Below are positions 17,189 through 48,661 of a stretch of 64,000 nucleotides of DNA, one piece after another. Made by a program: the position numbers and the translations under genes. The notes beneath the pieces were generated by a model. That model had not been told where the DNA came from, did no database searches, and saw only the letters and a program-made list of their open reading frames with translations. Where the stretch lies: NCBI GenBank assembly GCA_016861085.1, contig BOKR01000001.1, positions 991,298-1,055,297 of the forward strand, in the 5' to 3' direction. This DNA comes from Patescibacteria group bacterium. GTDB taxonomy: Bacteria; Patescibacteriota; Microgenomatia; UBA1400; PJMF01. Each line of letters opens with the position of its first letter. The first letter of the stretch is position 1.

Positions 17189-17190
17189 TT

Positions 17191-27488: not shown

Positions 27489-27498
27489 TTTGTACAGT

Positions 27499-28971: not shown

Positions 28972-28996
28972 AAACATATAATTAACTGAAGTACAT

Positions 28997-30475
28997 ATGC
29001 AAACCAAAGTAGCTGTTTTAGTTTTGTTGTTTGTTGTTTCTATTAGCCTTTTTTTTAGAACCTACAATGTTGAGAATACTACGAGAGTATTCAGCGATTC
29101 TGGCAGGGATTTTCTTGTTGCTAAAAAAATAGCCGAAGGATCTGCCCCATATAATCCATATTTAGCTTCATCATCTGGTTTTGAAAGCACTCCTATCTAT
29201 TATTGGGTTATTGCTTTTTTTTGGTCGATTGGAAGATCAATCGAAAACACTATAACTATTTATTCCGTGACTTTAGCTATAGCTACACCACTTATATTTT
29301 ATTTAATTGGAAAGGAAATTCATTCAAAAGAGCTCGGATTGTTCCTTGCTTTTTATTCCTCAATTCAACCATATTTTGTTGGTTTATCTAGGTGGATCTG
29401 GCAACCAAATGTGTTGATATTACTAATTCCAACGTTGTATTTATTTTTTTTATACAACAAAAAAGTTTTACTAAGAAAGAACCAACACAAGGAAAAATTT
29501 ATTCATATTTTTTTACTATTTCTCATACTAAATTTGAATATTCATATTCACTTCTCTTCGATAGTCTGCGTTTCTTTTCTGATCTCAATATTGATATATG
29601 AATTGCTAAAAAATAAGAAAATACTACTCGCTATCTCAGTAGGTTTAGGTTTTATTTCTTCGGTGTTAATTAGAGCGATAGTTGTCAATATTGCAACCCC
29701 AACAATCTTTGGTGTTGGCCTAAGTTTAAATCAAATGCTCATAAACTATAAACAAATTATTGGATCTTATGACAAAACTATTTTCTTAAATGAATGGTCA
29801 GAAAAACCTTCATTTTTCCCAAACATGATTCTTTTATTAGTTTTTCTTTCTATTTATTCATTTAAGAAACATAAAAAGTTGCCAAACCAGCTTATTACCT
29901 TACTAATAGGGTCACTACTCTCATTCATAACAGTAGTTTACCCAAAAACCGTGTATACCTACTTCTACATACCCCAGCTAGTACTTTTTCATATTCTTTT
30001 TGGAAGCATTCTGTACTTTTTTATGAAAATTAAGATTCAAATTTGTAGCAAGTTTTGTTTTGCACTAATCACAATAATTATATGTGGTTACTATATTGCT
30101 CACACCTATCAAATAATACACACAACCAACGAAATCAAAATCTCACAAATACTTTCGTTGGAGATTTACAAAGATTATAATACCAACCATCTCAGTATAT
30201 TTAGCATTGATTTTGTACCAAACAATTATGGACAAACAGACCATCAAAGTACATTTGACGCTATTTTGTGGCTACAAATGGAGTCCTTAATGAAAACTCA
30301 ACTCGTAAAAATTGGCACAACGTCACCTACAATAATCGAACCAAACAACCCCAAAATCACGTATTATGTTTTAGGCAACTCAGACCTAGTAGTACCACAA
30401 AAAAATACTGTGAAGATATTCGAACGAAAAATAGAGGGCGATACTTACTCAATTTATAAAGAATTAGCACTGTAA
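28997..30475 (+). CDS. GT-C-like polytopic membrane protein, third tandem paralog (divergent)
   Basis: 492 aa with multiple TM helices. N-terminal loop FSDSGRDFLVA…, in the same position as the DE/HPPL loop of the two upstream paralogs. Confidence 0.45.
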   Translation: MQTKVAVLVLLFVVSISLFFRTYNVENTTRVFSDSGRDFLVAKKIAEGSAPYNPYLASSSGFESTPIYYWVIAFFWSIGRSIENTITIYSVTLAIATPLIFYLIGKEIHSKELGLFLAFYSSIQPYFVGLSRWIWQPNVLILLIPTLYLFFLYNKKVLLRKNQHKEKFIHIFLLFLILNLNIHIHFSSIVCVSFLISILIYELLKNKKILLAISVGLGFISSVLIRAIVVNIATPTIFGVGLSLNQMLINYKQIIGSYDKTIFLNEWSEKPSFFPNMILLLVFLSIYSFKKHKKLPNQLITLLIGSLLSFITVVYPKTVYTYFYIPQLVLFHILFGSILYFFMKIKIQICSKFCFALITIIICGYYIAHTYQIIHTTNEIKISQILSLEIYKDYNTNHLSIFSIDFVPNNYGQTDHQSTFDAILWLQMESLMKTQLVKIGTTSPTIIEPNNPKITYYVLGNSDLVVPQKNTVKIFERKIEGDTYSIYKELAL

Positions 30476-30509
30476 TAAAATTAGAAAACGGGTAGAATTC
30501 TGATGTACT

Positions 30510-31529
30510 ATGAACTTGTTAATCACTGGCTCACTTGGTCTAGTCGGTTCGACTGCAACCGAATATTTCCTAAATAAAAATCATTCTATAACTGGTATTG
30601 ATAATGACATGAGGGCAGTCTTTTTCGGAAACGATGGTAGCACAACAACGCAGTTGAAACGATTCCTAAAAAATAGTAACTATACGCATACAGATCTAGA
30701 CATTCGCGATTATAAAAACCTAGAGAATATTTTCAAAGGCAACTCATTTGATGCCATTATTCACACGGCTGCACAGCCAAGCCATGACAAAGCCAGGGAA
30801 ATTCCACTCTTAGACTTCGAAGTTAATGCGTTAGGCACCCTCAACCTTTTGGAACTGACAAAACAATACGCTCAAAAAGCTGTCTTCATTTTCACAAGTA
30901 CTAATAAAGTTTACGGAGACAACCCCAACAAAATTGGCTTAAGAGAAAATAAAAAAAGATATGTATTTAAAGATAAATTGTTTGTTGGATTCAATGAATT
31001 GACCCCAGTCGATCACACTACACATTCACTGTTTGGAGCGAGTAAACTTAGTGCAGATATATGCGTCCAAGAATATGGCAAATACTTTGGACTCAAAACA
31101 ACTTGCTTACGGCTCGGTTGTATTACAGGGCAAGCACACTCTGGAGTAAAACTGCATGGGTTTCTCTCCTATTTAATTAAGTCCTTAAAAGAAAAAAAAT
31201 CATACGAAATTATTGGCTATAATGGTAAGCAAGTTCGCGACCAGATCCATGCATATGATCTCGCTGCCGCGTTTGAACAAATAATAAAAAAACCTGGTGT
31301 AGGGGAAGTCTTTAATCTTGGAGGTGGGTCTCAAAATACGATTTCCGTGTTAGAAGCTATTGAATTAGTCTCAAAAAAAATTAATATCGAGCCAAAACTC
31401 AAGTATACAAAAGCAAATCGAATTGGTGATCATATCTGTTACATTTCAGATATTAGAAAATTTCAAAAAAGATATCCCAAATGGAAACTAACGCAGAGCA
31501 TTGAGGATATTGTAAACGAACAACTATGA
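30510..31529 (+). CDS. NAD-dependent epimerase/dehydratase (CDP-paratose-2-epimerase-like SDR)
   Basis: MNLLITGSLGLVGS…GIDNDMR…, then a YxxxK catalytic pair. Confidence 0.75.
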   Translation: MNLLITGSLGLVGSTATEYFLNKNHSITGIDNDMRAVFFGNDGSTTTQLKRFLKNSNYTHTDLDIRDYKNLENIFKGNSFDAIIHTAAQPSHDKAREIPLLDFEVNALGTLNLLELTKQYAQKAVFIFTSTNKVYGDNPNKIGLRENKKRYVFKDKLFVGFNELTPVDHTTHSLFGASKLSADICVQEYGKYFGLKTTCLRLGCITGQAHSGVKLHGFLSYLIKSLKEKKSYEIIGYNGKQVRDQIHAYDLAAAFEQIIKKPGVGEVFNLGGGSQNTISVLEAIELVSKKINIEPKLKYTKANRIGDHICYISDIRKFQKRYPKWKLTQSIEDIVNEQL

Positions 31530-32284
31530 AACAAGTATCTATTCTCTCTGTTCCTGTGACAGTGACAAATTATCTTGAAACTATTACTTTTGTTAAGCGA
31601 ACTATTTCTCAAAGAAAAAAAATATATATTTATGTAGCCGCAGTTCATTTAATAATGGAATGTCAAAAAAACCCAAAGTTGCTGAAAAGTTTAAAAGGAG
31701 CAGCTATTGTTACTCCTGACGGAATGCCACTTGTATGGATTTCAAAACTATTGGGAAATAAACTTGCGGGTCGAGTATACGGACCAAATTTGACCATAAT
31801 GCTCTGTAGATTGGCTGAACTGTCTGGTTTTACAATTTTTTTGTTAGGAGGCTCTACTGGACAGTCTAAGAATTTAGTGAGTACCTTGCAATCAAAATTT
31901 AAAAAAATAAATATCGTTGGGAATATTGATACACCAATCAGGCCTATCCCAAAAAAAGAGAATCAAATAATAGTTGATGCTATAAATAAAAGTAAGCCAG
32001 ACATTGTTTTCGTTGGACTTGGCTGCCCTAACCAGGAATTGTGGATCATGGAGAATAGAAGTAAAGTCTCAGCACCCGTTTTAATCGGAGTTGGGGCGGC
32101 ATTTGACTTTATTTCTGGGAAAGTTCAACAAGCCCCAGTGTGGATGCAAAATAGTGGTCTTGAATGGCTGTATCGTTTGATTCAAGAACCAAAGCGTTTG
32201 TGGAAACGCTACTTAATACTTAACACGTTATTTATATTTAAAATTATTAAACAAATACTTAAATCTTTTTTTGTAGGACAGTAA
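31526..32284 (+). CDS. GT26 glycosyltransferase (WecB/TagA/CpsF family)
   Basis: …TPDGMPLVW…GRVYGPNL…FLLGG…VGLGCPNQELW… family signature. Confidence 0.8.
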   Translation: MKQVSILSVPVTVTNYLETITFVKRTISQRKKIYIYVAAVHLIMECQKNPKLLKSLKGAAIVTPDGMPLVWISKLLGNKLAGRVYGPNLTIMLCRLAELSGFTIFLLGGSTGQSKNLVSTLQSKFKKINIVGNIDTPIRPIPKKENQIIVDAINKSKPDIVFVGLGCPNQELWIMENRSKVSAPVLIGVGAAFDFISGKVQQAPVWMQNSGLEWLYRLIQEPKRLWKRYLILNTLFIFKIIKQILKSFFVGQ

Positions 32285-32332
32285 CTCACTTAGAACTCGG
32301 GTCTCACCAAAAAAGATAGTATACTACATCGC

Positions 32333-33556
32333 ATGCGAAAAAAAATTCTCTTTCTAAGTCAAGTATATCCATATCCAGCGGATGGTGGCGGTAAAATTAA
32401 AACATTAAACTCACTAAAAACACTTGCTAAAGATTTTGACGTCTATGCAATCTTTATTTCAGAAAAAAAACCGCTCAAAAAAGATATCGAATATCTTAAA
32501 AAAATTGGAGTAAAAAAAATCAAAGTATTTTACAATCTAAAAATTTTAGCATCTGTTAAAGATGATTATCCTCATCTAATTATGAATTTCCTGAAACTGA
32601 GGCCACACTATGTATTTCAGTATACTTTTGCACCGGCATTTTCATATATAAAAAATGCTGTCAGTAGCTACAAACCAGACATCATACACATCGACCATAT
32701 TAATATTGCTCAATATTTGCCAAAAGAAAAGAATGAAGTCTGGATTCTTGAGCACCACAATCTTGAATTTTATCTTCTATGGACAAGATTTTTATACTCC
32801 TCCAAATGGTCAAGAAAACTGTATCTGCTCATCGAGTCAGTACTAACATATTTATTTGAATCAAAAAAAATAAAACAATTTGATTTTGTTTTTACTATTT
32901 CTCAAGAAGAAGCTGAAAGATCAAAAAGATTTTTTGGGATAAGAAACGTTTCAGCTCAACCTCTTGTGTACCCCACCATTACTATTAAGAAGAAATTGTC
33001 ACTCAATCCTCACCTCCTTTTCATAGGTGGTCTAGGTTGGCCACCTAACGAAGATGCCATAGAGTGGTTTATCAATCAAATGTTTCCAATAATTCTAGAA
33101 AAAATTCCAAACGTTGAGCTTCATGTAGTTGGTAAAGATAACCCCATTCTTACTCATAGGTTACCAAAACACACTAATATCTTTTTACATGGGTATCAAA
33201 AAGATATCACACCTTTTTTGCAAAAAGCAGATATTTTTATCTTGCCCTTCCGCATGGGTGGCGGGGTTAGAATTAAGAGCCTGACTGCTCTTTCTGCGGG
33301 AGTACCAATCGTGTCTACAAAGTTGGGTGTAGAGGGACTAAAAGTCAAAAATAATACACACTATCTAGAAGCAAACACTGAAATAGATTTTGCCAACAGC
33401 GTTATCACACTGCTTAAGTCAAAAAAAATGCAAGATAAAATGTCAAAGAATCAAACCGAATATTTGACTGAAAACCACTCAAAAAAATTGAATAGAAAAT
33501 GGCTGGATGAATATCACTTTTGGTCTACATATCCCCATAAAAAAAACCGTTCATAA
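32333..33556 (+). CDS. GT4 family glycosyltransferase
   Basis: GT-B fold with a C-terminal …FILPFRMGGGVRIKSLTALSAGVPIVST…G.EG motif. Confidence 0.75.
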   Translation: MRKKILFLSQVYPYPADGGGKIKTLNSLKTLAKDFDVYAIFISEKKPLKKDIEYLKKIGVKKIKVFYNLKILASVKDDYPHLIMNFLKLRPHYVFQYTFAPAFSYIKNAVSSYKPDIIHIDHINIAQYLPKEKNEVWILEHHNLEFYLLWTRFLYSSKWSRKLYLLIESVLTYLFESKKIKQFDFVFTISQEEAERSKRFFGIRNVSAQPLVYPTITIKKKLSLNPHLLFIGGLGWPPNEDAIEWFINQMFPIILEKIPNVELHVVGKDNPILTHRLPKHTNIFLHGYQKDITPFLQKADIFILPFRMGGGVRIKSLTALSAGVPIVSTKLGVEGLKVKNNTHYLEANTEIDFANSVITLLKSKKMQDKMSKNQTEYLTENHSKKLNRKWLDEYHFWSTYPHKKNRS

Positions 33557-34419
33557 ATCTTCAAAAAGATAAAAGATAAAATGCTTCTTCTTTTACCAAA
33601 GGAGAAATATTGTCTATATTCCTGCGGCCATCCCTTGAGAGATTTGAAATATGTTTTCCAATTCACATAGGGCAAATATACAAACTCATTAGAAATTTCC
33701 CATTTTTCAGCTAGTAATCTTGCTAATCTACCACGGTAATACCCTTTTTTCAGGAAATAAGTCATACTTGTTGTTTCCTCGTGCCAAATTTGCAACTGCT
33801 TTATAAACAATCCTTTTAAACCCTTAGACTGCATTGCAAATCCCATATCTGTATCTGCGCTATCAAACCAATCAATATGAATTTTTGTATCAAAACTCAA
33901 TCTATTTCTTTTTAGATCTGAAACTTTGAATATAATATTTTTCGTATCTACATTAAAAGGAGTTGTTAATACTCCACCTTGAAGCTTTTGCATAAACCAG
34001 TACTTTTGGTGGACGTATTGAGCTGTGGCAGTTGCACTATAAGAGTTCAGTACTTTTGAATCTCCAATAAAGTACGAATTATTGGGAAAAATCTTTACAA
34101 TCCTTTCTGCAACAGTAATCCAACTCTTATGAAGTACGCAATCATCGTCAACAAAAGCCAAGTATTTTGTTTTTACATTTCTTAGAGCCACATTCCTAGC
34201 AAAAGGGACACCTTGTTTTTTTTCTGATATGTATCGAATCTGTAAAATATTTGAAAAAGAACAAGCAACGCTTTTTGCACTTAAGGCAATATCATTATCA
34301 ACAATTAATATCTCTAAAGGATATGTAGTCTGATCTACTAAAGAACAAAGTAAGCGGTGTAGTTGTTCCGGCCTTTTTTTTGTAACGATTGCTAAAGTAA
34401 CTTGCCTTTTTTCATGCAT
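33514..34419 (-). CDS. GT2 family glycosyltransferase
   Basis: N-terminal …AIVTKKRPEQL…ILIVDND… GT-A signature. Confidence 0.7.
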   Translation of the reverse strand: MHEKRQVTLAIVTKKRPEQLHRLLCSLVDQTTYPLEILIVDNDIALSAKSVACSFSNILQIRYISEKKQGVPFARNVALRNVKTKYLAFVDDDCVLHKSWITVAERIVKIFPNNSYFIGDSKVLNSYSATATAQYVHQKYWFMQKLQGGVLTTPFNVDTKNIIFKVSDLKRNRLSFDTKIHIDWFDSADTDMGFAMQSKGLKGLFIKQLQIWHEETTSMTYFLKKGYYRGRLARLLAEKWEISNEFVYLPYVNWKTYFKSLKGWPQEYRQYFSFGKRRSILSFIFLKIYERFFLWGYVDQK

Positions 34420-35876
34420 AGCAGCGTAAGTACCCCTAAATATAAAAATAATAAATCAAAACTTGGATCTTGATTAAATAGTGTGTGAACTTGCGAATTT
34501 AGGATAAACCCTACAACCCCCAACCATATACCAAAAAACACGTTTTTTTTAACATACTTAAAACTCAATTGTAATATACCAAGTAAAAACAAAATAAAAA
34601 ATACAGTACTAGGAATTCCTAGCTCTGAGAAAAAAAGAAAGAAAGTGTTATGCACGGGAAACATAAAACCTCTTAATTCAGGGGGCAATAAACTTTGTTC
34701 GTTCATCATTCTAGTACTTAAATTCAGTCCAACCCCAAATAAGGGAAATTCCTTTATCATAATTAGTGCCTGTTCAATGAGAGCTATTCTGACAACTCCA
34801 CTTCCATCTGATAAAAATTCCGTAGTGCTTACTATTCTGAGCCAAAATCGTTTACCAAATAGAACTAAAAAACTGCTTATTCCGGCGATAAAAAATAGTA
34901 GATATTTACTGATAAATTCTTTTAAAAAAATTCTTTCATTAAAATACAAGTTGAGGAAAAAAACTATGAAAAAAAGTAAGCTTGAAAACCATCCGCTCCT
35001 AACAAAACTCCCATACAACGCTAGCAGTCCTAGAAGTACACAGATAGATGAAACCACAGTTGTACCTCTCTGTTTTTCTTGCAATGAGAAAATTGAAAAA
35101 ACAATGGCAAATGGTAACAACATGCTAACAAAACTAGCAAAAAAAGTTGGGTGTCCAATTAAGCCAGAAGCTCTGTATAAACTTTCCGAACCGTCTGAAG
35201 TAAGGTATCCCTGTTGTTCATAACCAGCTCCGTCCTCGAGGTACCAACCTATTGGCCCACCATTTTGATGTTGTAAAAAACCAACGTACCCATTTAAAAA
35301 TAGGACCAAAATTATCGATAGGAAAAAATATTTTACAAATGTTCTGTTTTGTAAAATGATAATCGTTATAAAAAATAAAAACACCGCTTGTAAGATTCTT
35401 AAAAATCCAAAAAAGCTTAAAAAGTAGTCACTGGAAAACACTGTGCTTACAAAAGCTAGTACAATAAAGCCTAGTAATGCAAAAAGTACTAGCATAATAT
35501 TCTGATTAAATGATTTTCTAAAGTAGAAAAATAATTCTGGAGATGAAATTAAAAAAAGTAGCAAAATTATAATTGATCTCAGACTTACACCGTAATACAA
35601 GCTAAAACCGTGCATCCAAAATTCCCTTCCCTGAGCCACAGCAACCAAATCCCATCCACGAATGCCTTTGTCAAATGAAAAAACAAATAGCAACGCAACA
35701 AATAAGACTTCCTTTATTGAAAAATCAAAAAGTAGAAAATTAAATGTTACAAATGAAGACACGATAAAAAGCAAGGTCTTTATATCGTGAACAAATTGAA
35801 GAGCAACAATATGTACTAAAAAAACAAAAATAAAAAATAGTGAATTACCTAGTAACTGTTTCAACTTCAGCAACAT
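34392..35876 (-). CDS. Polytopic membrane protein, O-antigen ligase/polymerase-like
   Basis: 494 aa with ~12 TM helices and a large extracytoplasmic loop (…LEDGAGYEQQGYLTSDGSESLYRASGLIGHPTFFASF…), typical of the Wzy_C/O-antigen-ligase family. Confidence 0.5.
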   Translation of the reverse strand: MLLKLKQLLGNSLFFIFVFLVHIVALQFVHDIKTLLFIVSSFVTFNFLLFDFSIKEVLFVALLFVFSFDKGIRGWDLVAVAQGREFWMHGFSLYYGVSLRSIIILLLFLISSPELFFYFRKSFNQNIMLVLFALLGFIVLAFVSTVFSSDYFLSFFGFLRILQAVFLFFITIIILQNRTFVKYFFLSIILVLFLNGYVGFLQHQNGGPIGWYLEDGAGYEQQGYLTSDGSESLYRASGLIGHPTFFASFVSMLLPFAIVFSIFSLQEKQRGTTVVSSICVLLGLLALYGSFVRSGWFSSLLFFIVFFLNLYFNERIFLKEFISKYLLFFIAGISSFLVLFGKRFWLRIVSTTEFLSDGSGVVRIALIEQALIMIKEFPLFGVGLNLSTRMMNEQSLLPPELRGFMFPVHNTFFLFFSELGIPSTVFFILFLLGILQLSFKYVKKNVFFGIWLGVVGFILNSQVHTLFNQDPSFDLLFLYLGVLTLLCMKKGKLL

Positions 35877-36711
35877 CTGTTATTTCTAAAATAATACTAA
35901 CTTCTGGAAAAAAAAGTGAAAGATGTTCACCCAACCTTACTACTTGGTGACCAGAAAAATAATAATTTTCAAAAAGTTTTTCAACTTGCATTCTTAAAAC
36001 CATGTCAACATCTTTAACTGTATAATCAGTTCTCAGGTTTATATTTGATGTATATTCGTTTTTGTAGAGGGTCGAGACAAAACTCTGATGTGTTTCTGAT
36101 TTTTCAACTACAGCGTAAACTTTTCCTGTGTATGGGTTTTTTATATCCATTCCCTTATAAATTGCTTGCGCAACCGGATTAGGAACTGCTTTCGCTACTC
36201 CTGATACCAACACTTCTTCAGTTTGGTTCTTATAATTTGTATCAAAAATATCTACAACTTGCCCAACTATAAATACGCTGTCGAAATGAAAATCAATTTT
36301 TTGACCTACTTCAATATTCTTGCCTTTGTACACTGTCCTGCCAGTACTAAAATTTTCAACTGTTTCTATTTGAACATACAAAAATACTTGGGCGTTACCC
36401 CCATTTCTTTCAAAGAAATCAATATCAACAATTTCCGCAACCACCCTTCCATCAGGACTCACCTCATAAGCACCAATTTGTAAGTCTTTAACGAGCCATA
36501 GCGGTGGTCTATAACCCTCAAACTGAGAATAGTTATTTGTCCAATCTTGTCCAGTAACCTCAACTTTAATGAGCTGCTGATGAAGCTGTACTTTTTGATG
36601 TTTAACTAATGAAACAACAAAAAATGAAACTACTAAAAGAACTACCAAAGTATAAGGATTCAGAAAGCGTAGCTTATTTTTTATATACTCTGATACAGTT
36701 TTTTTCTTCAT
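35845..36711 (-). CDS. Hypothetical membrane-anchored protein
   Basis: 288 aa, one N-terminal TM helix, no motif recognised. Co-directional with and overlapping the ligase-like gene. Confidence 0.4.
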   Translation of the reverse strand: MKKKTVSEYIKNKLRFLNPYTLVVLLVVSFFVVSLVKHQKVQLHQQLIKVEVTGQDWTNNYSQFEGYRPPLWLVKDLQIGAYEVSPDGRVVAEIVDIDFFERNGGNAQVFLYVQIETVENFSTGRTVYKGKNIEVGQKIDFHFDSVFIVGQVVDIFDTNYKNQTEEVLVSGVAKAVPNPVAQAIYKGMDIKNPYTGKVYAVVEKSETHQSFVSTLYKNEYTSNINLRTDYTVKDVDMVLRMQVEKLFENYYFSGHQVVRLGEHLSLFFPEVSIILEITDVAEVETVTR

Positions 36712-36804: not shown

Positions 36805-37605
36805 ATGAAAAATAGCCACTATGATTGGAAAAACTTACTTATCGAGCTAACAAAGAAAGAGATATCTGTTAGATACAAAAAAACATTCTTTGGTTTTTTA
36901 TGGATGTTCTTAAACCCACTTTCTCAAATGCTAATTTTAGGGATTGTTTTTCAAAATTTTGCGAATCTCTCAATAAAAACTGAGAATTACTTTTTGTTTT
37001 TATTTATTGGACTTATCATTTGGAATTTTTTTTCAAATACTTTATATACTACAATTCCCATTTATGTTAATGAACGGGCTCTACTACAAAAAAGCAAATT
37101 TCCGAGAGAAATCATCCTTATTTCAGTACTATTTTCCAATCTATTTCATTACTTAGTTTCCCTTCTTGTTCTTCTTTGTTTTATTAGTATCTACTTCCTC
37201 TTCAGCAATGGTATGGGCGTTGTATTGAATTTGATTATTAGAACACCACTCATTCTCCTGACTACAATCTGGCTTGGACTACTTACAACCGGTATTGGTT
37301 TATTTCTCTCGTCACTGAATGTTAAATATAGAGATATTAATTTTTTTACTAGCGCAGCACTGCCACTCCTGTTTTATGCCTCCCCAATCATCTGGGAACT
37401 CCATTTTGTTCCGAAAGCTATTTTACCGATTCTGTACCTAAATCCACTCGCCTCTATCATTGAAATAAACAGGTATGTTTTTCTAAATGAAGGATTAGCT
37501 TTTTCAAAAGGAATTCTTTTAGGATTAATTGTTACCATCATTGTACTAGCGCTCGGAATTTATATTTTCGAAAAAGAAAGTCCTTACTTTGACGATTGGC
37601 TATAG
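36805..37605 (+). CDS. ABC-2 type polysaccharide/teichoic-acid export permease (Wzm/TagG-like)
   Basis: 266 aa, 6 TM helices, N-terminal …ISVRYKKTFFGFLWMFLNPL… ABC-2 signature. Confidence 0.75.
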   Translation: MKNSHYDWKNLLIELTKKEISVRYKKTFFGFLWMFLNPLSQMLILGIVFQNFANLSIKTENYFLFLFIGLIIWNFFSNTLYTTIPIYVNERALLQKSKFPREIILISVLFSNLFHYLVSLLVLLCFISIYFLFSNGMGVVLNLIIRTPLILLTTIWLGLLTTGIGLFLSSLNVKYRDINFFTSAALPLLFYASPIIWELHFVPKAILPILYLNPLASIIEINRYVFLNEGLAFSKGILLGLIVTIIVLALGIYIFEKESPYFDDWL

Positions 37606-38359
37606 AATGAAACCGAAACAAAAAAAACTACAAGAAATAGCGGTCAAACTAACGAAAGTGAGTAAAGTTTATACTGTAAAAACAGAAAAACCAACACTTG
37701 TTGAAACAGTACTAAACAAAAAGGGTATCACAAAATATACTGCTCTTAATTCTTTTGATTTAACTGTTCTTAAAGGTGAAAAACTTGGAATCATTGGTTC
37801 AAATGGTGCAGGAAAAACGACACTATTAAAAATTATTGTCGGAATTACACAGCCTCAAAGCGGAACTGTCACCGTAAATGGTAAAATTGTCTCATTGATT
37901 AATCTAATGGCAGGTTTTCACCCAGAGATGTCTGGTTTTGACAACATCAAGCTTAACGGACTGCTCATTGGTATGAGTGGAGCAGAAATCGAGGAAAAGA
38001 AAAATAAAATAGTAAAATTTGCAGATATTGGTGAGTTTATCTATGCGCCATTACATACCTACTCAACTGGAATGAAGTTGCGTCTTGGATTTTCTATAGC
38101 GGTTCACTCGGACCCAGATATTCTTATTCTCGATGAAGGGGTAAGTGCCGGTGATGAAAAATTCAGAGCGAAAGCGAACAATAAAATTCAAAAATTATTC
38201 AAACAAAATAAAACCATTATTGTCGTTTCACACTGGCTCAATTTTCTTAAAGAAAATTGTAATAGAATAATTTGGATGGAAAAAGGCAAAATAAAAAAAG
38301 ACGGCTCAACTAAGCTACTAGATGAATATCTGGCCTTTTATGCAGGAAAGAAAAAGTAA
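37589..38359 (+). CDS. ABC transporter ATP-binding protein (Wzt/TagH-like)
   Basis: Walker A GSNGAGKTTLLK, ABC signature YSTGMKLRL, Walker B ILILDEG. Start overlaps the permease stop. Confidence 0.8.
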   Translation: MTIGYRMKPKQKKLQEIAVKLTKVSKVYTVKTEKPTLVETVLNKKGITKYTALNSFDLTVLKGEKLGIIGSNGAGKTTLLKIIVGITQPQSGTVTVNGKIVSLINLMAGFHPEMSGFDNIKLNGLLIGMSGAEIEEKKNKIVKFADIGEFIYAPLHTYSTGMKLRLGFSIAVHSDPDILILDEGVSAGDEKFRAKANNKIQKLFKQNKTIIVVSHWLNFLKENCNRIIWMEKGKIKKDGSTKLLDEYLAFYAGKKK

Positions 38360-39844
38360 CACAACCCTTGGTTTGAAAATCATTCTGTGAAATGGAAGCT
38401 TCAAAGCTAATCGCATAACATGCAGTTCCACCAGAAATTTCCGAGCAAAGTAGCTGTTCTCGTCCCACCAATTCCCTTCACCTTGATAAGTTGCTATCCT
38501 ATTTAAGTCAAAATGCTTCGATAATAATTTGACTCTTCTGTTCACACCGAATGAAGAAAGATATTTCTCATTAAGTTGTAAATTAAAAATCCTGTTCCCA
38601 ACGTACATCAGTAGTTGAACTTCATCCCAAAACCCATACTGACTAGAAATCCTCTGTAACTTCTGCCAATTAATTTTGGTGTCTTCCGAAAGAATTTTCG
38701 ACAGTTCAAATATTTTTCGCAATCCATGAAAAAAGTCGTTTGCCCATAATCTTACAACTGAACTTAAAATGTAATATTCGATCTCTATTATCCCATCTTT
38801 TGAGTGAGATAAAATGTCTTTTGTTAGTCTCATTGTTTCTTTTCGTGTGAAAATCAAGTTTCTTGGAATTGAAGAATAGTAATGCAAATCTATGACAAGA
38901 TTGTGTTTATCATGAATCAACTGCACTTCCTGAGGAGGACAATCTTTCGTTCTGTATCCCAGAATATATAATGCAATCAAATATCTTTTTAAGTATCTTT
39001 TGCCGACAAGAATATCAATGTCATATGTTGTATTTTGTTTTAGTTTTATGTCACCTTGATATTTTTTCAATAAAACAAATCTAACTCCCAACTTTTTTGC
39101 TATTAAATGCAAATCATTTTTCAGCTTGTCCTTTTGCCAGTCAAGAAAAATATTCTTTTTAAAAAGATTTTCAATTCGTAACAAAAATTGATCTGAAAAG
39201 TAACTTCTACAATTTATACAATTTAAAATATGATTAAAATAAGTAATTGATTTGTTATTTTCAGCTATTTTAAATAACCGGTCTTCAAGTACAACATTCT
39301 GTTGAAAATCCCACTTACATTTCTTCCCCTTTTCCTTAGATATACTAAGTAAAAAATCGTATGATAAATCAATTCCTTTTCTATTTCTTTTTTGTGCAAG
39401 AATTTTTAAAATAACAACTTCGTAAAAAAAATAGTTGTGTACCAATTTGAAAATATATTTTCTTGGAATAGTTAGACTCATTAAAAATGAATATATTTGA
39501 AAAAAAGGTATGATCAGTTTTGAAATGAAAACTTCAAGATCTAAAACATATGCTCCATTCTTGATAACAGTAACAATTCCAATATAACTGCTGCCATTCA
39601 CAAGATCTCCGTCTTCTGTTAGATTAAAATCTCCTTTTACCTTCAGTAATCTGCCACTATCACCGTTAACTACTTTAGTAACCCTGTGTGATAAAAGGTT
39701 GCCTGTATAGTTTCTATATAAAACTATATCTCCAGATTGTACTTGAGAAAAAGGATAATCCAATTGAACTGTTAACCTATCCCCTGAAGAAATAAGGGGA
39801 AACATACTTTTTCCTGAAGACGTAATCTGTATATATTGTTTCAT
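38318..39844 (-). CDS. Fusion: S24/S26 (signal-peptidase-I-like) peptidase domain + PF14907-type 'uncharacterised nucleotidyltransferase' domain
   Basis: N-terminus GKSMFPLISSGDRLTV…SGDIVLY…TKVV… has the S26 Ser/Lys signature. C-terminus has …GVRFVLLKKYQG…YDIDILVGKRYL… (R-x-DIDLLV-like nucleotidyltransferase motif). The internal ATG (MKQYIQITSSGKSMFP) is preferred because the track start at 39919 would overlap the divergent GT2 gene start. Confidence 0.5.
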   Translation of the reverse strand: MKQYIQITSSGKSMFPLISSGDRLTVQLDYPFSQVQSGDIVLYRNYTGNLLSHRVTKVVNGDSGRLLKVKGDFNLTEDGDLVNGSSYIGIVTVIKNGAYVLDLEVFISKLIIPFFQIYSFLMSLTIPRKYIFKLVHNYFFYEVVILKILAQKRNRKGIDLSYDFLLSISKEKGKKCKWDFQQNVVLEDRLFKIAENNKSITYFNHILNCINCRSYFSDQFLLRIENLFKKNIFLDWQKDKLKNDLHLIAKKLGVRFVLLKKYQGDIKLKQNTTYDIDILVGKRYLKRYLIALYILGYRTKDCPPQEVQLIHDKHNLVIDLHYYSSIPRNLIFTRKETMRLTKDILSHSKDGIIEIEYYILSSVVRLWANDFFHGLRKIFELSKILSEDTKINWQKLQRISSQYGFWDEVQLLMYVGNRIFNLQLNEKYLSSFGVNRRVKLLSKHFDLNRIATYQGEGNWWDENSYFARKFLVELHVMRLALKLPFHRMIFKPRVVLLFLSCIKGQIFI

Positions 39845-39924
39845 GTGACTAACTATATCAAACCTATTATAAGCAAATATTTTTAGTTCTGGAAATGCAA
39901 AACAAAATACTGTATACAAACCTT

Positions 39925-40929
39925 ATGAGTAAGGTGTCTGTAATCATACCAACAAAAAATAGACAAGAATATCTAAAAAAGAACTTGAATGCCCTCGTGA
40001 ACCAAACAGTTGCACCTGACGAAGTTATTGTAGCTGATAATGGTTCAACAGATAATACAAAAAAGATTATCAGTTCATTTAAAGATAAGCTTCCGATTAA
40101 GTACCTCTTGGTTAAAAAATCAGGGGTCACCCATGCTCGAAATAACGCTGTTAAAAAAGCAACACATGAGATCGTTGCTTTTCTTGATGATGACTGCGAA
40201 GCAAAAAATAACTGGATTGAAAAAATCAAGAAAAACCAACACTATCTTGATACCCATGTTGTCCAGGGAAAATCGATTAACCCTAATAAAAAAAATATAA
40301 TCGCCGAAGTTATGTACTTCTGCTCTGAAACAGGTGTTAGAGTTTGCATTAGTGAATCAAAAATTATTAATAATCAAATAGATAATAAACCAATTTTTTT
40401 CGATTTTCTTGACACAAAGAACTTGGTGATAGGCAAAAAAATCATTAAAAAAGTTGGTACTCTATTTGACAATAACCTTGAAAGTTACAATTATGGTGAA
40501 GATACAGAACTTGGAATAAGACTACATTCTATGGGTATTTCTTCAATATATTGTGAGGACATCAAAGTCGATCATCATTACATTGATAATCTTATGCCAT
40601 TTATCAAAAAAAGCTTCCTAGCGGGTAAAACACAAGTGGCTGTAACAAAGATAATTAAAATGAAGCACAAGGAGAGGTATGAAAATGAAAAAAAATATGC
40701 TGAGATTTTTGGCAATAAGGCAATGAAAAATATTGTTGGGAAGAGACTAAAAAATGTGAGAATAATTTCAAATGAGTATTTTAGAATATTATCAAAAAAA
40801 TATTCACCTTTGCGTATAATCACATTCAAATCATTATTTTATGGGCATATTCTTTTCAAAAATCTGGGAATTTACTACCAGAAGTTACTTTACTTATTTA
40901 TAAAACTACCCTATACTCACTCTCGTTAA
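39925..40929 (+). CDS. GT2 family glycosyltransferase with C-terminal extension (paralog A)
   Basis: MSKVSVIIPTKNRQEYL…VIVADNGSTDNT…AFLDDDC… GT-A core plus a ~100 aa helical tail. Paralogous to the 41291-42205 gene. Confidence 0.65.
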   Translation: MSKVSVIIPTKNRQEYLKKNLNALVNQTVAPDEVIVADNGSTDNTKKIISSFKDKLPIKYLLVKKSGVTHARNNAVKKATHEIVAFLDDDCEAKNNWIEKIKKNQHYLDTHVVQGKSINPNKKNIIAEVMYFCSETGVRVCISESKIINNQIDNKPIFFDFLDTKNLVIGKKIIKKVGTLFDNNLESYNYGEDTELGIRLHSMGISSIYCEDIKVDHHYIDNLMPFIKKSFLAGKTQVAVTKIIKMKHKERYENEKKYAEIFGNKAMKNIVGKRLKNVRIISNEYFRILSKKYSPLRIITFKSLFYGHILFKNLGIYYQKLLYLFIKLPYTHSR

Positions 40930-40932
40930 ATT

Positions 40933-41196
40933 ATGAAAAAATATAAGATAAATTCAAAATTAGTATATAAACAAGTATCAGACCAAGTCATCATCTTAGA
41001 TGAAGAAAGAGCTGAAGTCCGAGAACTCAATGATGTTGCAAGCCTTATATTCCTCAATATGATTTCTTGGACCACTCTAGAAAAAATTTCTGAAAAAATA
41101 TCAAAAGAATACGACGTTTCTCAAAAAGAGGTATTGCGTGATGTAAATGAGTTTGTTACTATGTATATAGATAAAGGTTATATATTAACCAAGTGA
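40933..41196 (+). CDS. PqqD-family peptide chaperone (RiPP recognition element, RRE)
   Basis: 87 aa. …VIILDEERAEVRELNDVASLIFLNMISWTTLEKISEKISKEYDVSQKEVLRDVNEFVTMYIDKGYIL matches the PqqD consensus end to end. Confidence 0.75.
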   Translation: MKKYKINSKLVYKQVSDQVIILDEERAEVRELNDVASLIFLNMISWTTLEKISEKISKEYDVSQKEVLRDVNEFVTMYIDKGYILTK

Positions 41197-41209
41197 TTCA
41201 GAAAGGCAT

Positions 41210-41284
41210 ATGAAAAAAACATACAAAAAACCAGCAGAAAAAGTTGAAAAACTATTGGTCTACACTGGTAATCAAACCCTCTAG
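41210..41284 (+). CDS. Small ORF (24 aa, MKKTYKKPAEKVEKLLVYTGNQTL), candidate modified-peptide precursor
   Basis: Fills the 94-nt gap between the PqqD and GT2 genes. GAAAGG Shine-Dalgarno sits 3 nt before the ATG. Contains a YxxP leader-like motif; below the ORF-track length cut-off. Confidence 0.3.
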   Translation: MKKTYKKPAEKVEKLLVYTGNQTL

Positions 41285-41290
41285 TTAGAG

Positions 41291-42205
41291 ATGATTTCTG
41301 TTATAGTTGTGACGAGGAATAGGCAATCTCATTTGTTTGGTTGTCTAGTTTCCCTTTCAAAACAGACTAGACAGCCAAAGGAAATTCTAGTTATCGACAA
41401 TGCTTCGACTGATAACACTAGGGTAGTTGTTGAAGAATTTTCAAGGAAGTACCCTCACATTAAATACATTTATTGTTCAAAACTTGGAATTCCCTACTCT
41501 AGGAATATGTCTGTTGAAAAGGCTAAATATGACATACTTGCTTGTTTAGATGACGATTGCAACCCTGATTTGGATTGGTATGAGAATATTGAAAAACAGG
41601 CTGAATTAGCGAATAATTATGTACTTCAAGGAGGAGCTAAAAATCCCAATCCTACTAATGTACTTTCAACCACTCTTTTTTATCTAAATCAGAGATTTCT
41701 CAACCTAGAATTACTAATTAGCAATAATACTTATCGAAAGTATAAAGTTATTCATTTTTTTGATACAAAAAATTTCGTAATACACAAAAAACACATCAAA
41801 AAGGTTGGTCATTTTTTAAATGAAAAACACATTCTCGCTGCAGACTTATTCTTCCAAAAGGATCTCGAAAATAACAACATTAAAATTCTCTACTTGCCTG
41901 GCATAGATGTATACCACAGTTACATGACAAATTTATTTGGATATTTGAACAAAATCATTTGGGCAAAAAAATGCAAGCAAATTTTTGGTTCTGTTCAACT
42001 CATACATACAAAAAAATTAGAATCAACCAAAAACTTGTTTGGTATGGATAGGGTTGCTAAAGTTCAAACAACATTTTACAAGAAACTTAAAAAAATAAAC
42101 CAAGATTTTTTTGATACTTGTGCAGCAAAAATGAATTTTCCCAAAAAGATTATGCTTAAAACAACAGTTTTTTTGACGCAGTTGTATCTTGGTGACACTA
42201 TCTAA
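41291..42205 (+). CDS. GT2 family glycosyltransferase with C-terminal extension (paralog B)
   Basis: MISVIVVTRNRQSHL…LVIDNASTDNT…ACLDDDC…, same layout as paralog A. Confidence 0.65.
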   Translation: MISVIVVTRNRQSHLFGCLVSLSKQTRQPKEILVIDNASTDNTRVVVEEFSRKYPHIKYIYCSKLGIPYSRNMSVEKAKYDILACLDDDCNPDLDWYENIEKQAELANNYVLQGGAKNPNPTNVLSTTLFYLNQRFLNLELLISNNTYRKYKVIHFFDTKNFVIHKKHIKKVGHFLNEKHILAADLFFQKDLENNNIKILYLPGIDVYHSYMTNLFGYLNKIIWAKKCKQIFGSVQLIHTKKLESTKNLFGMDRVAKVQTTFYKKLKKINQDFFDTCAAKMNFPKKIMLKTTVFLTQLYLGDTI

Positions 42206-42222
42206 AGTATAATACAACTCCA

Positions 42223-42972
42223 ATGCATAAAAGTTTTTGTATCGATTTAGCATCAAAAAAGGTAGAGATTTCTGCAAATACAGATAATGTTTTCGAACAC
42301 TTAATGCAAAGTTATAGTAACTTTATCGTTAGAGATAGCAGAAAAACAAACATTAATTTACAGATCAAAGGCATTAAAACAAGAAAAAATTATAAACCGA
42401 TTAGTGATATTTCATCCAGAAGTGGAAAAATTATTATTCCCAACAACGCCAATCTAAGTTTTTCTGAAATACACTTTAATATCAAAATTGTTCTAACTCA
42501 ACTTCTAATTCAAGATGATTTTATGCTTCTGCACGCTTCGGCATTCATAAAGAATAATAATATGTATATTATGAGTGCTCCGTCTGGAACTGGCAAATCA
42601 ACAACTTGTAGATTTGCAAAAGAAAAAGGATTAAATGTTGTTTGCGATGACTCTGTTTTGCTAAGGGTCGAAAACAGAAAACTAATCGGGTATACAACTC
42701 CTTATATCGAAACTCATAAAAAGGTTTCTTCTCCACAATCATATCAGGTTGCTGGGATATACTTTTTGCATCAATCTAAAACAGACAAACTACAAAAACA
42801 AAACACCGTTGAATCAGTACGAAGCATTTTGTTTAATAGTTATATTTTTCAAAATGACTACAAAGAAAAGTATATAAGCAAGTATTTTTCTTTAGCCCAT
42901 GTGATAGCTAGTAGAACGAAAACGTACGATCTGTTTTTTACCAAATCTTCAAAATTTTTGGGAATAATTTAG
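42223..42972 (+). CDS. HPr-kinase/phosphorylase C-terminal-domain-like P-loop kinase (RiPP-associated Ser/Thr kinase type)
   Basis: …LLHASAFIKNNNMYIMSAPSGTGKSTTC…VVCDDSVLL… matches the HprK-like/lasso-peptide-kinase P-loop pattern LHAS.V…GxSGxGKST…DD. Confidence 0.6.
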   Translation: MHKSFCIDLASKKVEISANTDNVFEHLMQSYSNFIVRDSRKTNINLQIKGIKTRKNYKPISDISSRSGKIIIPNNANLSFSEIHFNIKIVLTQLLIQDDFMLLHASAFIKNNNMYIMSAPSGTGKSTTCRFAKEKGLNVVCDDSVLLRVENRKLIGYTTPYIETHKKVSSPQSYQVAGIYFLHQSKTDKLQKQNTVESVRSILFNSYIFQNDYKEKYISKYFSLAHVIASRTKTYDLFFTKSSKFLGII

Positions 42973-43904
42973 ATTACTTTGTTATAATCTTGAAATTTAT
43001 TGTCCATGTTGATACCGATATAATATACGAGGTAGTGTTTATTATGTTTATAGAGACAAAAATTCGGAAATGAACTATAAAGCTTTTGCATATTTTTTCT
43101 AACATTGTCAATTTCAGCAGCGAAGTTAAAAAAGATGATTCCATCTTTTTTAAGTATTCTATGAAGCCCATTTAAAAATGCTTTTGAAAATAATTGTTTA
43201 GGAAGTCGCCCATCAATAAATAGATCAATAAATATGAAATCGTATTTACTTTTCGATTCTTTTACAAAGTCAAATGCATCACTATTAATTTGGAAAATTT
43301 TTGCTGAATCTGTATTTTTAATTAATGGTAAAAAATAATTGGCTCCAATTTCACTAATTTTTGTATTGATCTCCACAGAGTCAACTTTCCTCACATTTCT
43401 CAAAATCGCTGTTACACAAGGAACAGATTCTGCACCACCACCTAGTACTAGAACATCATTATTTTTTGTGTTTTTTGACTGTAAGATGTCTCTAACAACC
43501 TTAAAATGAACGCATCTATCGTAAGGAAAAAGTGAAACTTTTGAGTGTGTCCAGTATACTCCAGGTGTTTTTTCATAAAAAGCTATTCTGGCTGATTCTT
43601 GAACCAAATCAAATCTTAGATGATCAACGACTGAGTGTTTCTTTTCGTCTATGTAAAAATCAGTAATGTGTATAAACAACCCCTGCTTTTTAAGCAAAAA
43701 GTAAAAGTAAATCAAGCTCAACAATAATACAACTACAACTACGCATGAAATAAGGAAATCTACCTTTAGCGAAATAAGTAGCAATACAAATAGCAGTACA
43801 AAATATGCTATTAATTTTTTGCTACCGTAAGGAGTTCCCTTGATGTACATGTTCCTATCATAATTTCTTATAACTTTTCTAAATAAAAAAATAAGTGTTG
43901 ACAT
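42969..43904 (-). CDS. Membrane-anchored class I SAM-dependent methyltransferase / spermidine-synthase-like protein
   Basis: N-terminal TM helices, then VLVLGGGAESVPCVTAIL…VDSVEIN…IFIDLF (Rossmann, spermine/spermidine-synthase-like). Confidence 0.5.
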   Translation of the reverse strand: MSTLIFLFRKVIRNYDRNMYIKGTPYGSKKLIAYFVLLFVLLLISLKVDFLISCVVVVVLLLSLIYFYFLLKKQGLFIHITDFYIDEKKHSVVDHLRFDLVQESARIAFYEKTPGVYWTHSKVSLFPYDRCVHFKVVRDILQSKNTKNNDVLVLGGGAESVPCVTAILRNVRKVDSVEINTKISEIGANYFLPLIKNTDSAKIFQINSDAFDFVKESKSKYDFIFIDLFIDGRLPKQLFSKAFLNGLHRILKKDGIIFFNFAAEIDNVRKNMQKLYSSFPNFCLYKHNKHYLVYYIGINMDNKFQDYNKVI

Positions 43905-44863: not shown

Positions 44864-44884
44864 CCACAAAAAAAGCGCTTAATT

Positions 44885-45009
44885 CTGGCCTCGACCTATC
44901 TTCTCACTAGGGTTGCCCCTGCAATATTGTCAGCGCTGAGGCGTTTCAAGACTCTGTTCGGGAAGGGAAGAGTTGGGTCCACCTCGCTCCAGAGACCAGA
45001 ATTAAACGC
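44885..45009 (-). rRNA. rrf: 5S ribosomal RNA
   Basis: Minus-strand transcript GCGUUUAAUUCUGG…CCCGAACAGAGUCUUGAAACGCCUCAGCGCUGACAAUAUUGCAGGGGCAACC…CCAGAAUUAAGCGC. Helix I terminal pairing and loop-C/helix-IV consensus are present. Ends are approximate. Confidence 0.75.
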
Positions 45010-45189
45010 TTTAATCTGTATTATACTTCTCTCTTAACTTGTTAATGGGTGCAAAATCGTGTTTTCACGAGGTTTGCACACTGTTGTTGTTGCAAGCAGC
45101 CAAACGGTTTGCACAACAACGTAATTTGAACTCTAACAAGTGAAGAAAATCTGCCATGGGTCAAAAAGTCATTTGGTCGATTGGCCATA

Positions 45190-48115
<2,926 letters not shown>

Positions 48116-48587
48116 TAAATTTTAATTTAAAATTTTGCATGTTTGTATAATATTTTTCAATATGATACGGTTTGTAGCTTACTTATTATGTGCTTGAATT
48201 TGCATTCAAGCTCAAGTAATTATTTAATTCTTTAGTTAATCTCAAAATTGAAATTATAAAGATGTACGGCCAACTTAAATGATCAAATCATCTATTTGAC
48301 CTATACATGACAGTTTTCTTCACTTGTTAAAGTTCATCTTATAATTTTAAGTCTCAAAGCTTTCGGATTTATGCGTATAGAGCTTTTAAAAAACGTAGAG
48401 TTCAATATAATCTATACACCACCACTTATTTGACTTTAGCTTAGTTGCTAATTGTTAGTTCCTAGTTAATCCCGGGTGAGAGAAACCAAAGAACTAATAA
48501 CTAACAACCAATGTTATTTTAGTTTTCGCGCCAAAAAAAAAGAGTGATCAAATTATGAAAAGTAGTCTTATCCAGAGAAAAACTCTG

Positions 48588-48661
48588 TGGACCCTAAGGG
48601 GATCGAACCCTTCACCTCCTCATTGCAAATGAGGCGCTCTAGCCAGATGAGCTAAGGGCCC
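48588..48661 (-). tRNA. tRNA-Ala (anticodon UGC), CCA not encoded
   Basis: Cloverleaf read by hand: acceptor GGGCCCU/AGGGUCC with the G3:U70 alanine identity pair, D-arm AGCUCAUCUGGCUAGAGC, anticodon loop UUUGCAA, T-arm GGUUCGAUCCC. Confidence 0.85.

Follow-up and report, generated by a model that had tools for sequence, protein, structure and literature searches.

A compact gene module in a 64,000-nt stretch of DNA from a Patescibacteria group bacterium (hereafter, the window) probably encodes a pathway for a peptide, made on the ribosome and then modified post-translationally (RiPP), of the linear polyphosphorylated peptide (LPP) type, and by analogy with characterized systems its product is most likely a very small peptide that carries phosphate and probably also sugar. 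Popov et al. (Nat Commun 2026, PMC13381572) gave the name LPP to the products of gene sets such as lppA, K, B, S, D and N of Paenibacillus alginolyticus, only about one third of which are linked to lasso enzymes, and their domain table for these clusters uses TIGR02228, PqqD, TIGR04249/04352/04355 and NTP_transf_5. Every model that defines LPP clusters, other than that of the exporter, matches proteins of the window, and the module is a reduced, rearranged relative of the Bacillota clusters. Its genes are listed here together with an exporter pair that is probably associated with it and two downstream genes that are possibly accessory, their membership being uncertain:

36805..37605, + strand: ABC-2 permease of the Wzm/TagG type (PF01061, 61.9 bits)
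37589..38359, + strand: ATP-binding cassette (ABC) ATPase of the Wzt/TagH type, partner of the permease (PF00005, 76.5 bits)
38318..39844, − strand: fusion protein of 508 residues, signal-peptidase-like and NTP_transf_5 (TIGR02228 and PF14907)
39895..40929, + strand: glycosyltransferase of family 2 (GT2) A, with a DDD motif (FLDDDC; PF00535, 101.6 bits)
40933..41196, + strand: discrete PqqD-family RiPP recognition element (RRE), equivalent to LppB/B1 (PF05402, 43.3 bits)
41210..41284, + strand: precursor peptide gene of 24 codons, MKKTYKKPAEKVEKLLVYTGNQTL, a conserved open reading frame (ORF) with a Shine-Dalgarno-like site
41291..42205, + strand: GT2 B, paralog of GT2 A (PF00535, 88.7 bits)
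42223..42972, + strand: HprK-like (ScmC-family) P-loop kinase, equivalent to LppK/PsmK/PadeK (TIGR04352/TIGR04249/TIGR04355, PF27840)
42969..43904, − strand: membrane-anchored protein of spermidine-synthase/methyltransferase fold (PF01564, 54.5 bits), syntenic in the related contigs L001 and L002
43976..44863, + strand: methyltransferase of the Methyltransf_24 class (PF13578, 93.7 bits), syntenic in L002

The five genes from GT2 A through the kinase are separated by gaps of 3, 13, 6 and 17 nt and thus form one tight operon. An original prediction made from the DNA alone had proposed that a PqqD RRE, an HprK-like kinase and a PF14907 nucleotidyltransferase (NTase) make up a module of RiPP type here; every gene that it listed was found, exactly or within a few bases of the coordinates given, and family matches and recurrence in relatives bear the proposal out. 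The fusion gene and the ABC ATPase gene, on opposite strands, overlap at their 3' ends by 42 bases (38318-38359). The ATG of the fusion gene at 39844 agrees with the called starts of its orthologs, and an alternative upstream start (TTG at 39919) would overlap, on the opposite strand, the start codon of GT2 A. A scan for promoters and terminators returned sites no commoner than in shuffled sequence.

The kinase, which is 100% identical to protein BroJett025_10250, matches three HprK-related NCBIfam models (TIGR04352 HprK_rel_A, E 1e-10; TIGR04249 ScmC, E 5e-9; TIGR04355, E 5e-6), all with scores under the curated cut-offs, and its precomputed Pfam family is PF27840 (ScmC). An AlphaFold2 model built on a 46-sequence alignment (pLDDT 93.4) found PEP carboxykinases as its top Protein Data Bank matches (E 3e-10), with no HprK entry among the 50 matches listed; HPr kinase and PEP carboxykinase belong to the same P-loop fold superfamily. 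These matches and the PEP carboxykinase-like fold of the model agree with the HPr-kinase-like assignment made originally. Distant relatives keep H104, G124, K125 and T127 without exception and D142 almost without exception, while among the nine closest relatives D142 and D143 are both invariant, the latter pair being the counterpart of the D158/D159 metal site of PsmK (PMC6993621). The PqqD ORF, previously called a high-confidence peptide chaperone, deserves that description, with its PF05402 score standing against a cut-off of 23.4 bits. The two GT2 enzymes that had been described as paralogs bracketing the RRE gene are indeed related, with 32% identity along the whole length (E 5e-45), and each has a DDD motif. 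Their best scores were to the exopolysaccharide enzyme EpsD (E 9e-28), followed by the mycofactocin model TIGR03965 (E 3e-24) and generic GT2 models; a specific kinship with glycocin or mycofactocin glycosyltransferases was considered and rejected, the matches to solved structures being generic GT2 enzymes.

The fusion protein comprises an S26/SipW-like domain of the archaeal/ER signal peptidase I type (residues 1-~100), a hydrophobic linker (~103-150) and a PF14907 NTP_transf_5 domain (~200-445). Its peptidase half matches the archaeal-type signal peptidase I model TIGR02228 at 44.9 bits (E 1e-11; cut-off 51.85) and its NTase half matches PF14907 at 28.4 bits (E 1.5e-6; cut-off 31.2). Ser13, His53 and Asp78, in the motifs KSMFP, SHRV and GDFNLTED, are invariant in orthologs and align with the motifs of SEC11A, whose corresponding Ser/His/Asp residues form its catalytic triad. 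In the NTase half D275-x-D277 is likewise invariant in orthologs, aligns with the DxD of NTP_transf_5 proteins (hhalign E 2e-4) and is the counterpart of the D134/D136 motif of PsmN (PMC6993621). The L001 ortholog, which is 50% identical, has a precomputed PF14907 match, and a peptidase-NTase fusion also occurs in Clostridia (L042, L120), where PF14907 scores 117-148 bits. The NTase/S26 fusion named in the original prediction is upheld by this ortholog, by the triad and DxD alignments and by the clostridial fusions, both halves being sub-threshold by hidden Markov model (HMM). The N-terminal domain is predicted to be the leader peptidase, equivalent to LppS, and the C-terminal domain the equivalent of LppN/PsmN. 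An AlphaFold2 model of the fusion, built from three sequences, was unusable (pLDDT 37.7).

The 24-codon ORF is a real conserved gene under purifying selection. Homologs stand at the same position in L001 (MKKVYKKPAEKIEKLLVYTVEITL) and L002 (MKKKSYTKPAEKVEKLLVYTGLQSL), and each of the three peptide ORFs is preceded by a Shine-Dalgarno-like site, with stop codons in the other frames. Relative to the window, the 24 codons of the L001 peptide comprise 10 identical, 9 synonymous and 5 non-synonymous codons, and those of the L002 peptide 11, 9 and 4, respectively. We treat the small ORF as a gene because it has been kept, despite nine synonymous changes, in contigs whose kinases are only 49% (L001) and 55% (L002) identical to that of the window. 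The earlier proposal of this ORF (exact position 41210-41284) as candidate substrate is upheld, and its amino-acid sequence is conserved in both contigs. A YxxP motif (Y5-K-K-P8) lies in its leader, and the leader motif occurs once in the whole window. Cleavage is predicted after the conserved Val-Tyr-Thr19, a site in keeping with the -3/-1 rule for type I signal peptidases and with LppA, which is cut after T-1. The Tyr would then lie at -15 from the cleavage site, compared with Y-16 in LppA and W-15 in PbaA, and the conserved Thr lies 14 residues past the Tyr, where the LPP consensus has 15. The predicted cores are GNQTL in the window and VEITL and GLQSL in the L001 and L002 homologs, with Thr or Ser kept at +4.

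The module is also present in a third Patescibacteria contig, L066 (Candidatus Shapirobacteria). L001 has the gene order of the window (ABC-2 permease, ABC ATPase, fusion on the − strand, GT2, PqqD, peptide, GT2, kinase and, on the − strand, the spermidine-synthase-like gene) behind a different upstream flank of QueC, Ham1 and ThyA, and both GT2 genes are kept in L001 and L002. In L066 the genes are rearranged and the peptidase and NTase are encoded separately: the set comprises Wzm/Wzt-type ABC genes, NTP_transf_5 (70.6 bits), a separate S24/S26 peptidase (TIGR02228, E 1.5e-13), one GT2 of the same clade, a peptide, PqqD and the kinase. The GT2 A homolog is single copy in L066 and is also found in L003. 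Altogether at least four divergent contigs, whose kinases are 49-55% identical or less, keep the module. Chance adjacency of unrelated genes in a polysaccharide locus, which the position of the module at the end of a long glycan locus might invite, is exceedingly improbable: the same set stands amid different neighbors in L001 and in a changed order in L066, and among 125 kinase-bearing loci (described below) PqqD is found in 70, an S26-like peptidase in 31 and NTase in 18. The synteny data refute this explanation, recurrence in L001, L002 and L066 implying that the adjacency is not coincidental, and a gene set that survives rearrangement and fission or fusion bears the signature of a functional unit. 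Neighborhood conservation had been suggested originally as a check on the module, and the gene set passes it. Two minor features of these contigs deserve mention. A CBM96/metallophosphatase gene (L066:1886-3922, +) lies between the ABC genes and the NTase gene of L066, and phosphatases are frequent neighbors of LPP clusters in the published table (PMC13381572). In L002 (L002:366-2250) each of the two GT2 genes is split into two ORFs, more likely by sequencing frameshifts than as pseudogenes, because the '2x' in the contig name probably marks low coverage.

The gene content, the synteny, the catalytic motifs and the selection acting on the peptide are direct observations; by homology and analogy with characterized enzymes we infer the steps of an LPP-type pathway that would link them. 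After translation of the 24-residue peptide, the discrete PqqD RRE would bind the YxxP leader, and the HprK-like kinase would phosphorylate, possibly several times, a hydroxyl residue in the short C-terminal part, the leading candidate being the conserved Thr/Ser that lies four residues past the Tyr-Thr pair. The NTP_transf_5 domain and the two operon GT2s may then add one or more sugars to the phosphate, as has a precedent in pseudomycoidin, where PsmN (PF14907) is required for the attachment of one or two hexoses to the phosphoserine (PMC6993621). The SipW-like Ser/His/Asp domain of the fusion would cut off the leader after Val-Tyr-Thr19, and the resulting phospho(glyco)peptide of 4-5 residues would be exported, perhaps by the adjacent Wzm/Wzt-type ABC transporter. 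In the P. alginolyticus system LppK adds up to four phosphates to core Ser3 and LppS (Ser29/His68/Asp93) cuts after T-1 in a reaction that needs the RRE and proceeds poorly on unphosphorylated precursor, while deletion of LppN had no effect in the heterologous host, leading the authors to suspect a partner outside the core cluster (PMC13381572).

The resemblance to LPP clusters extends to a SipW-type signal peptidase with Ser/His/Asp, a discrete PqqD RRE, an HprK-like kinase, NTP_transf_5, the lack of a macrolactam cyclase, a YxxP leader, Thr at the predicted -1 position and a setting in a polysaccharide locus; the published co-occurrence table shows the same linkage of kinase, PqqD, peptidase and NTase (PMC13381572). 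Paeninodin (PadeK) and pseudomycoidin (PsmK, PsmN) clusters share with the window an HprK-like kinase acting on the precursor, a PF14907 NTase and a [Y/W]xxP leader for the RRE (PMC8498205, PMC6993621), and there are lasso clusters in which one protein joins the NTase to the B2 leader peptidase (PMC8498205, PMC6993621). The window module differs from them in having neither lasso cyclase nor B2, in its S26 serine protease and in a candidate acceptor that is not a C-terminal Ser. Among the ORFs scanned for families, which span 12.5-58 kb of the window, we found no Asn-synthase-like cyclase (C) and no transglutaminase-like B2 protease, in agreement with the absence of both claimed originally, and lasso-peptide membership was rejected on these grounds. 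The peptidase domain that had been claimed to stand in place of B2 is the TIGR02228-like domain of the fusion with its triad.

Several observations weigh against an LPP-type assignment. The window precursor has 24 residues as against 35-200 in LPPs, and most of the consensus YxxPxVLxHQxIxFETxxS (its VLxHQxIxFE part) is not present. The hydroxyl residue of the predicted core lies at +4 and is Thr in two of the three homologs, whereas LPPs have Ser at +3 and LppK does not accept S3T or S3Y (PMC13381572). The L066 peptide, ...IYQKPAEKVKRIEILRGY (L066:5962-6063, +), which ends in Gly-Tyr, lacks the conserved Thr and has no Ser or Thr past the leader, only the C-terminal Tyr, so that it and the window peptide may be modified at different sites. 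By sequence comparison with solved relatives (lasso TfuB1, E 1.7e-4; PqqD, E 6e-3; LppB, 9x8z, E 0.018) the window RRE stands no nearer to LppB than it does to PqqD or the lasso B1 proteins. Both scores of the fusion, on PF14907 and on TIGR02228, are sub-threshold; we accept the two assignments because of the ortholog, the motif alignments and the clostridial fusions. The peptidase domain begins only 12 residues before the catalytic Ser and therefore lacks the N-terminal segment of ~28 residues that, in the LppS model, supplies the helix touching the RRE, and a single hydrophobic segment (~residues 103-125) parts it from the NTase domain, which leaves the topology of the fusion uncertain, since the two domains could face opposite sides of the membrane. 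Finally, the exporter of LPP clusters is MsbA-type and that of the window Wzm/Wzt-type: no ABC_membrane-type (MsbA-like, TIGR02203/02204) exporter was found in the scanned region, and the ABC pair next to the module, a glycan-export type, may be part of the glycan locus around it. The discrepancies in precursor length, RRE, peptidase, exporter and acceptor mark the module as a variant rather than a typical member of the LPP family.

Further differences from described LPP clusters are the Patescibacteria host, the fusion of peptidase and NTase, the lack of the LppS N-terminal helix, the two GT2 genes within the operon and a predicted core of just 4-5 residues. The original prediction had read the module as an undescribed class outside any characterized RiPP family. 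In substance its RiPP reading stands; its claim of novelty has been overtaken, since the LPP family, defined in 2026, has the same core domain set (PMC13381572) and the class is no longer undescribed. Papers on RRE-Finder made no mention of the window gene set, and literature searches on ScmC, SynChlorMet, PF14907 and HprK-related kinase returned nothing relevant. What is new here is the Patescibacteria host, the occurrence of a signal peptidase-NTase fusion in this context, the operon GT2 pair, the Wzm/Wzt association, the minimal core and a shared leader linking LPP-type with radical-SAM (Scm-type) cassettes. LPPs and paeninodins have been stated to be restricted to Bacillota (PMC13381572), and the module would place the LPP core machinery in a small-genome bacterium of the candidate phyla radiation.

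The setting of the module raises a different possibility. Upstream of it, positions 19982-36711 hold a conventional long glycan-assembly locus with two epimerase/dehydratases, a GT2-YdjC fusion, a Bac_transf polyprenyl-phosphate priming transferase (22213-22830), WecG, a GT2, two Wzy_C proteins (one of 752 aa), a GT1, a GT4 and two PMT_2-like membrane proteins. The top NCBIfam match of the permease at 36805..37605 is the galactan export permease Wzm/RfbD (E 8e-18), and the ATPase at 37589..38359 matches galactan Wzt (E 3e-56) and teichoic-acid export TagH (E 4e-55). Conceivably, then, the phosphorylated peptide is an acceptor or primer on which the NTase and GT2s build a phospho-linked glycan that the Wzm/Wzt (TagGH-like) pair exports to the envelope, the module being an integral part of the glycan locus and not a stand-alone natural-product pathway. 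A Wzm/Wzt-type exporter adjoins the module in the window, L001 and L066, GT2 genes are interleaved with those of the RRE and the peptide, related cassettes sit beside sugar-nucleotide or glycosyltransferase genes in L003, L004, L005 and L021, a full glycan pathway (Bac_transf, WecG, Wzy_C, PMT_2) stands at 19982-36711, and LPP and paeninodin clusters lie within capsular polysaccharide loci, co-induced with an exopolysaccharide gene (PMC13381572). On the other hand, the Bac_transf at 22213-22830 already suffices for a lipid-linked pathway of the conventional kind, adjacency to a glycan locus is weak evidence because such loci are common, and the clostridial relatives have an ABC_membrane-type exporter or no adjacent transporter. 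Peptide-linked polymers are also not a known Wzm/Wzt cargo, and we know of no Wzm/Wzt system that exports them. We regard a peptide-primed glycan, which the original prediction had also named, as rather unlikely.

An intermediate proposal, which we offer tentatively and consider unlikely, keeps the LPP machinery and holds that in Patescibacteria it has been rebuilt around glycosylation, with a phosphodiester-linked glycan built by the fused NTase and the two GT2s on a 4-5-residue core that the kinase has phosphorylated, and export by Wzm/Wzt. If this were true, the pathway would yield a phosphoglycan primed by a ribosomally templated peptide, or a micro-glycopeptide, linked to the cell envelope, and the GT2s would be the missing partner of the NTP_transf_5 enzyme that is inactive in the published heterologous LPP system.

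The operon GT2s, together with an NTase fused to the leader peptidase, offer a concrete candidate partner in a compact system. The link of the module to a glycan locus, noted originally, is no accident and recurs in L001, L066, L004, L005 and the Bacillota clusters (PMC13381572), and this repeated tie to glycan genes and exporters supports the idea of peptides linked to surface polysaccharides.

The shortness of the core suggests another alternative, in which the peptide is mainly a scaffold, as in the pyrroloquinoline quinone (PQQ), mycofactocin and pearlin-type pathways, with its final few residues modified and set free, and the product a phospho- or glycosyl-amino-acid derivative. Past a leader as long as those of LPPs or lasso peptides, the window, L001 and L002 have only 4-5 residues left and L066 only about two (Gly-Tyr), and the mycofactocin model gives the second-best GT2 score after EpsD. 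That score is far under the cut-off of TIGR03965, however, with generic GT2 enzymes as the matches to solved structures, and the ORFs scanned include no radical-SAM enzyme, oxidase or amino-acid ligase. The last residues vary (GNQTL, VEITL, GLQSL, GY), which argues against a single conserved small-molecule product. We judge a scaffold role distinctly improbable. Glycocin and mycofactocin systems resemble the window in encoding a GT2 beside the peptide, and mycofactocin also in placing it beside a PqqD-like RRE, but the window has no radical-SAM enzyme and no glycocin Cys/Ser acceptor motif.

A kinase profile search returned 5283 cluster representatives at E<=1e-3 and only 4 at E<=1e-30: the family is large, and the subclade of the window kinase within it is small; word-seeded homolog searches gave 4 matches for the kinase and 2 for the fusion, indicating that this subclade is rare in public data. 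A scan of GTDB genomes with the kinase alignment found nothing. Further loci were gathered with a hand-made P-loop DNA pattern, and the survey of the collected loci, using HMMs built from sequences in hand, comprised 125 kinase-bearing loci, 118 of which are pieces of GTDB genomes of <=8 kb; radical-SAM/SPASM enzymes were found in 33. Two architectures stand out. The first (L004, L005, L052, L087), often next to sugar genes, has kinase, PqqD, radical-SAM/SPASM, precursor, S26-like peptidase and NTP_transf_5 in that order. The second, in gut Clostridia (L042, L062, L103, L120 and others), has no radical-SAM enzyme or cyclase in the stretches covered and runs from precursor through kinase and PqqD to S26 peptidase, with or without NTase, which is sometimes fused to the peptidase, and with or without an ABC exporter. 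Thus kinase, RRE, signal peptidase and NTase appear as a unit that, depending on lineage, is joined to a lasso cyclase, radical-SAM/SPASM enzymes, GT2s or nothing.

The first architecture is of the SynChlorMet type (TIGR04249 ScmC, TIGR04248 ScmD, PF27840), cassettes that we take to be known from comparative genomics alone. Like them, the window has a ScmC-family kinase beside a PqqD homolog, and the relatives L004, L005, L052 and L087 also have an S26-like peptidase and NTP_transf_5; SynChlorMet-type cassettes have Cys-rich cores and one or two radical-SAM/SPASM maturases, whereas neither is present in the window, where the ORFs scanned gave no radical-SAM or SPASM match and GT2s are found instead. 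The precursors of L004 and L005 (MKKAYQKPALKAEKMFERTVLACLKC... and MKRKYQKPEIKTEKMFEKRVLACGKC...) consist of a leader followed by a Cys-rich core, and the leader is common to them and the window peptide. This raises the question of whether the module is a decaying remnant of such a cassette that has lost its maturase and Cys-rich core and is now non-functional or retains only a GT2 function. In its favor are the four cassettes containing kinase, PqqD, radical-SAM/SPASM, S26-like peptidase and NTase, and the window-like leaders that precede the long Cys-rich cores of L004 and L005. Yet the codon differences of the peptide are 9 synonymous versus 4-5 non-synonymous, every enzyme has its catalytic motifs intact, at least four divergent contigs retain the module, and cassettes free of radical SAM are common elsewhere, one being experimentally active (PMC13381572). 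We consider decay very improbable and reject it on the selection acting on the peptide, the intact motifs and the retention in divergent contigs. A metagenome scan with a degenerate leader pattern yielded only two Cys-rich precursors, from another subclade (L008, L009), and no further short-core examples.

Among the clostridial cassettes, those at L042:899-4049, L120:877-3505 and L062:84-3339 close with the NTase gene and that at L103:3927-7067 with an ABC exporter (Eubacteriales, Acutalibacteraceae), and the candidate precursors found in gut Clostridia cassettes have no Cys, for example MKEFKTPEFEVVDFELEDIITVSIGSGGIDDGWY in L042. Kinase and S26-like peptidase, with no radical-SAM match in the piece of <=8 kb, occur in Bacteroidota (L053, L095, L122), Chloroflexota (L110), Methylomirabilia (L105), Planctomycetota (L039) and Myxococcaceae (L031); several of these also have PqqD, and L110 has NTase. 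This distribution suggests that LPP-like cassettes extend beyond Bacillota, although short pieces may hide further genes.

The remaining observations concern the surroundings of the module and more distant loci. Upstream of the glycan locus, 16574-17862 and 18396-19925 hold PilN-/PilO-like genes and a secreted-looking protein with a purple-acid-phosphatase N-terminal domain. Within the glycan locus two proteins, of 288 aa (35845-36711, −) and 481 aa (26043-27488), have no family match. Directly downstream of the module (44883-48661, −) are genes for 5S rRNA (44883-45000), 23S rRNA (45199-48120) and tRNA-Ala(TGC) (48588-48661); no 16S rRNA gene is found in the whole 64-kb window, so that the 16S and 23S genes are, at the least, not neighbors. 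In Solirubrobacterales/Conexibacter one to three tandem short Cys-free precursors, such as MEQEPNYEAPEVEELDVSQDPVETAAG..., lie beside ScmC-like kinases (L040:6182-6497, L059:3486-3698, L119:147-245), and L040 and L059 also have a radical-SAM match. The closest non-orthologous kinases, 29-30% identical to that of the window, are found at L006:103-3968 and L007:83-3945, in a run of genes for radical SAM, PAPS_reduct-like and QueC-like proteins, kinase and PqqD, together with a 52-aa ORF, also conserved, that is read from the opposite strand (...KKRYMKPKFTVKFLFTNL...).

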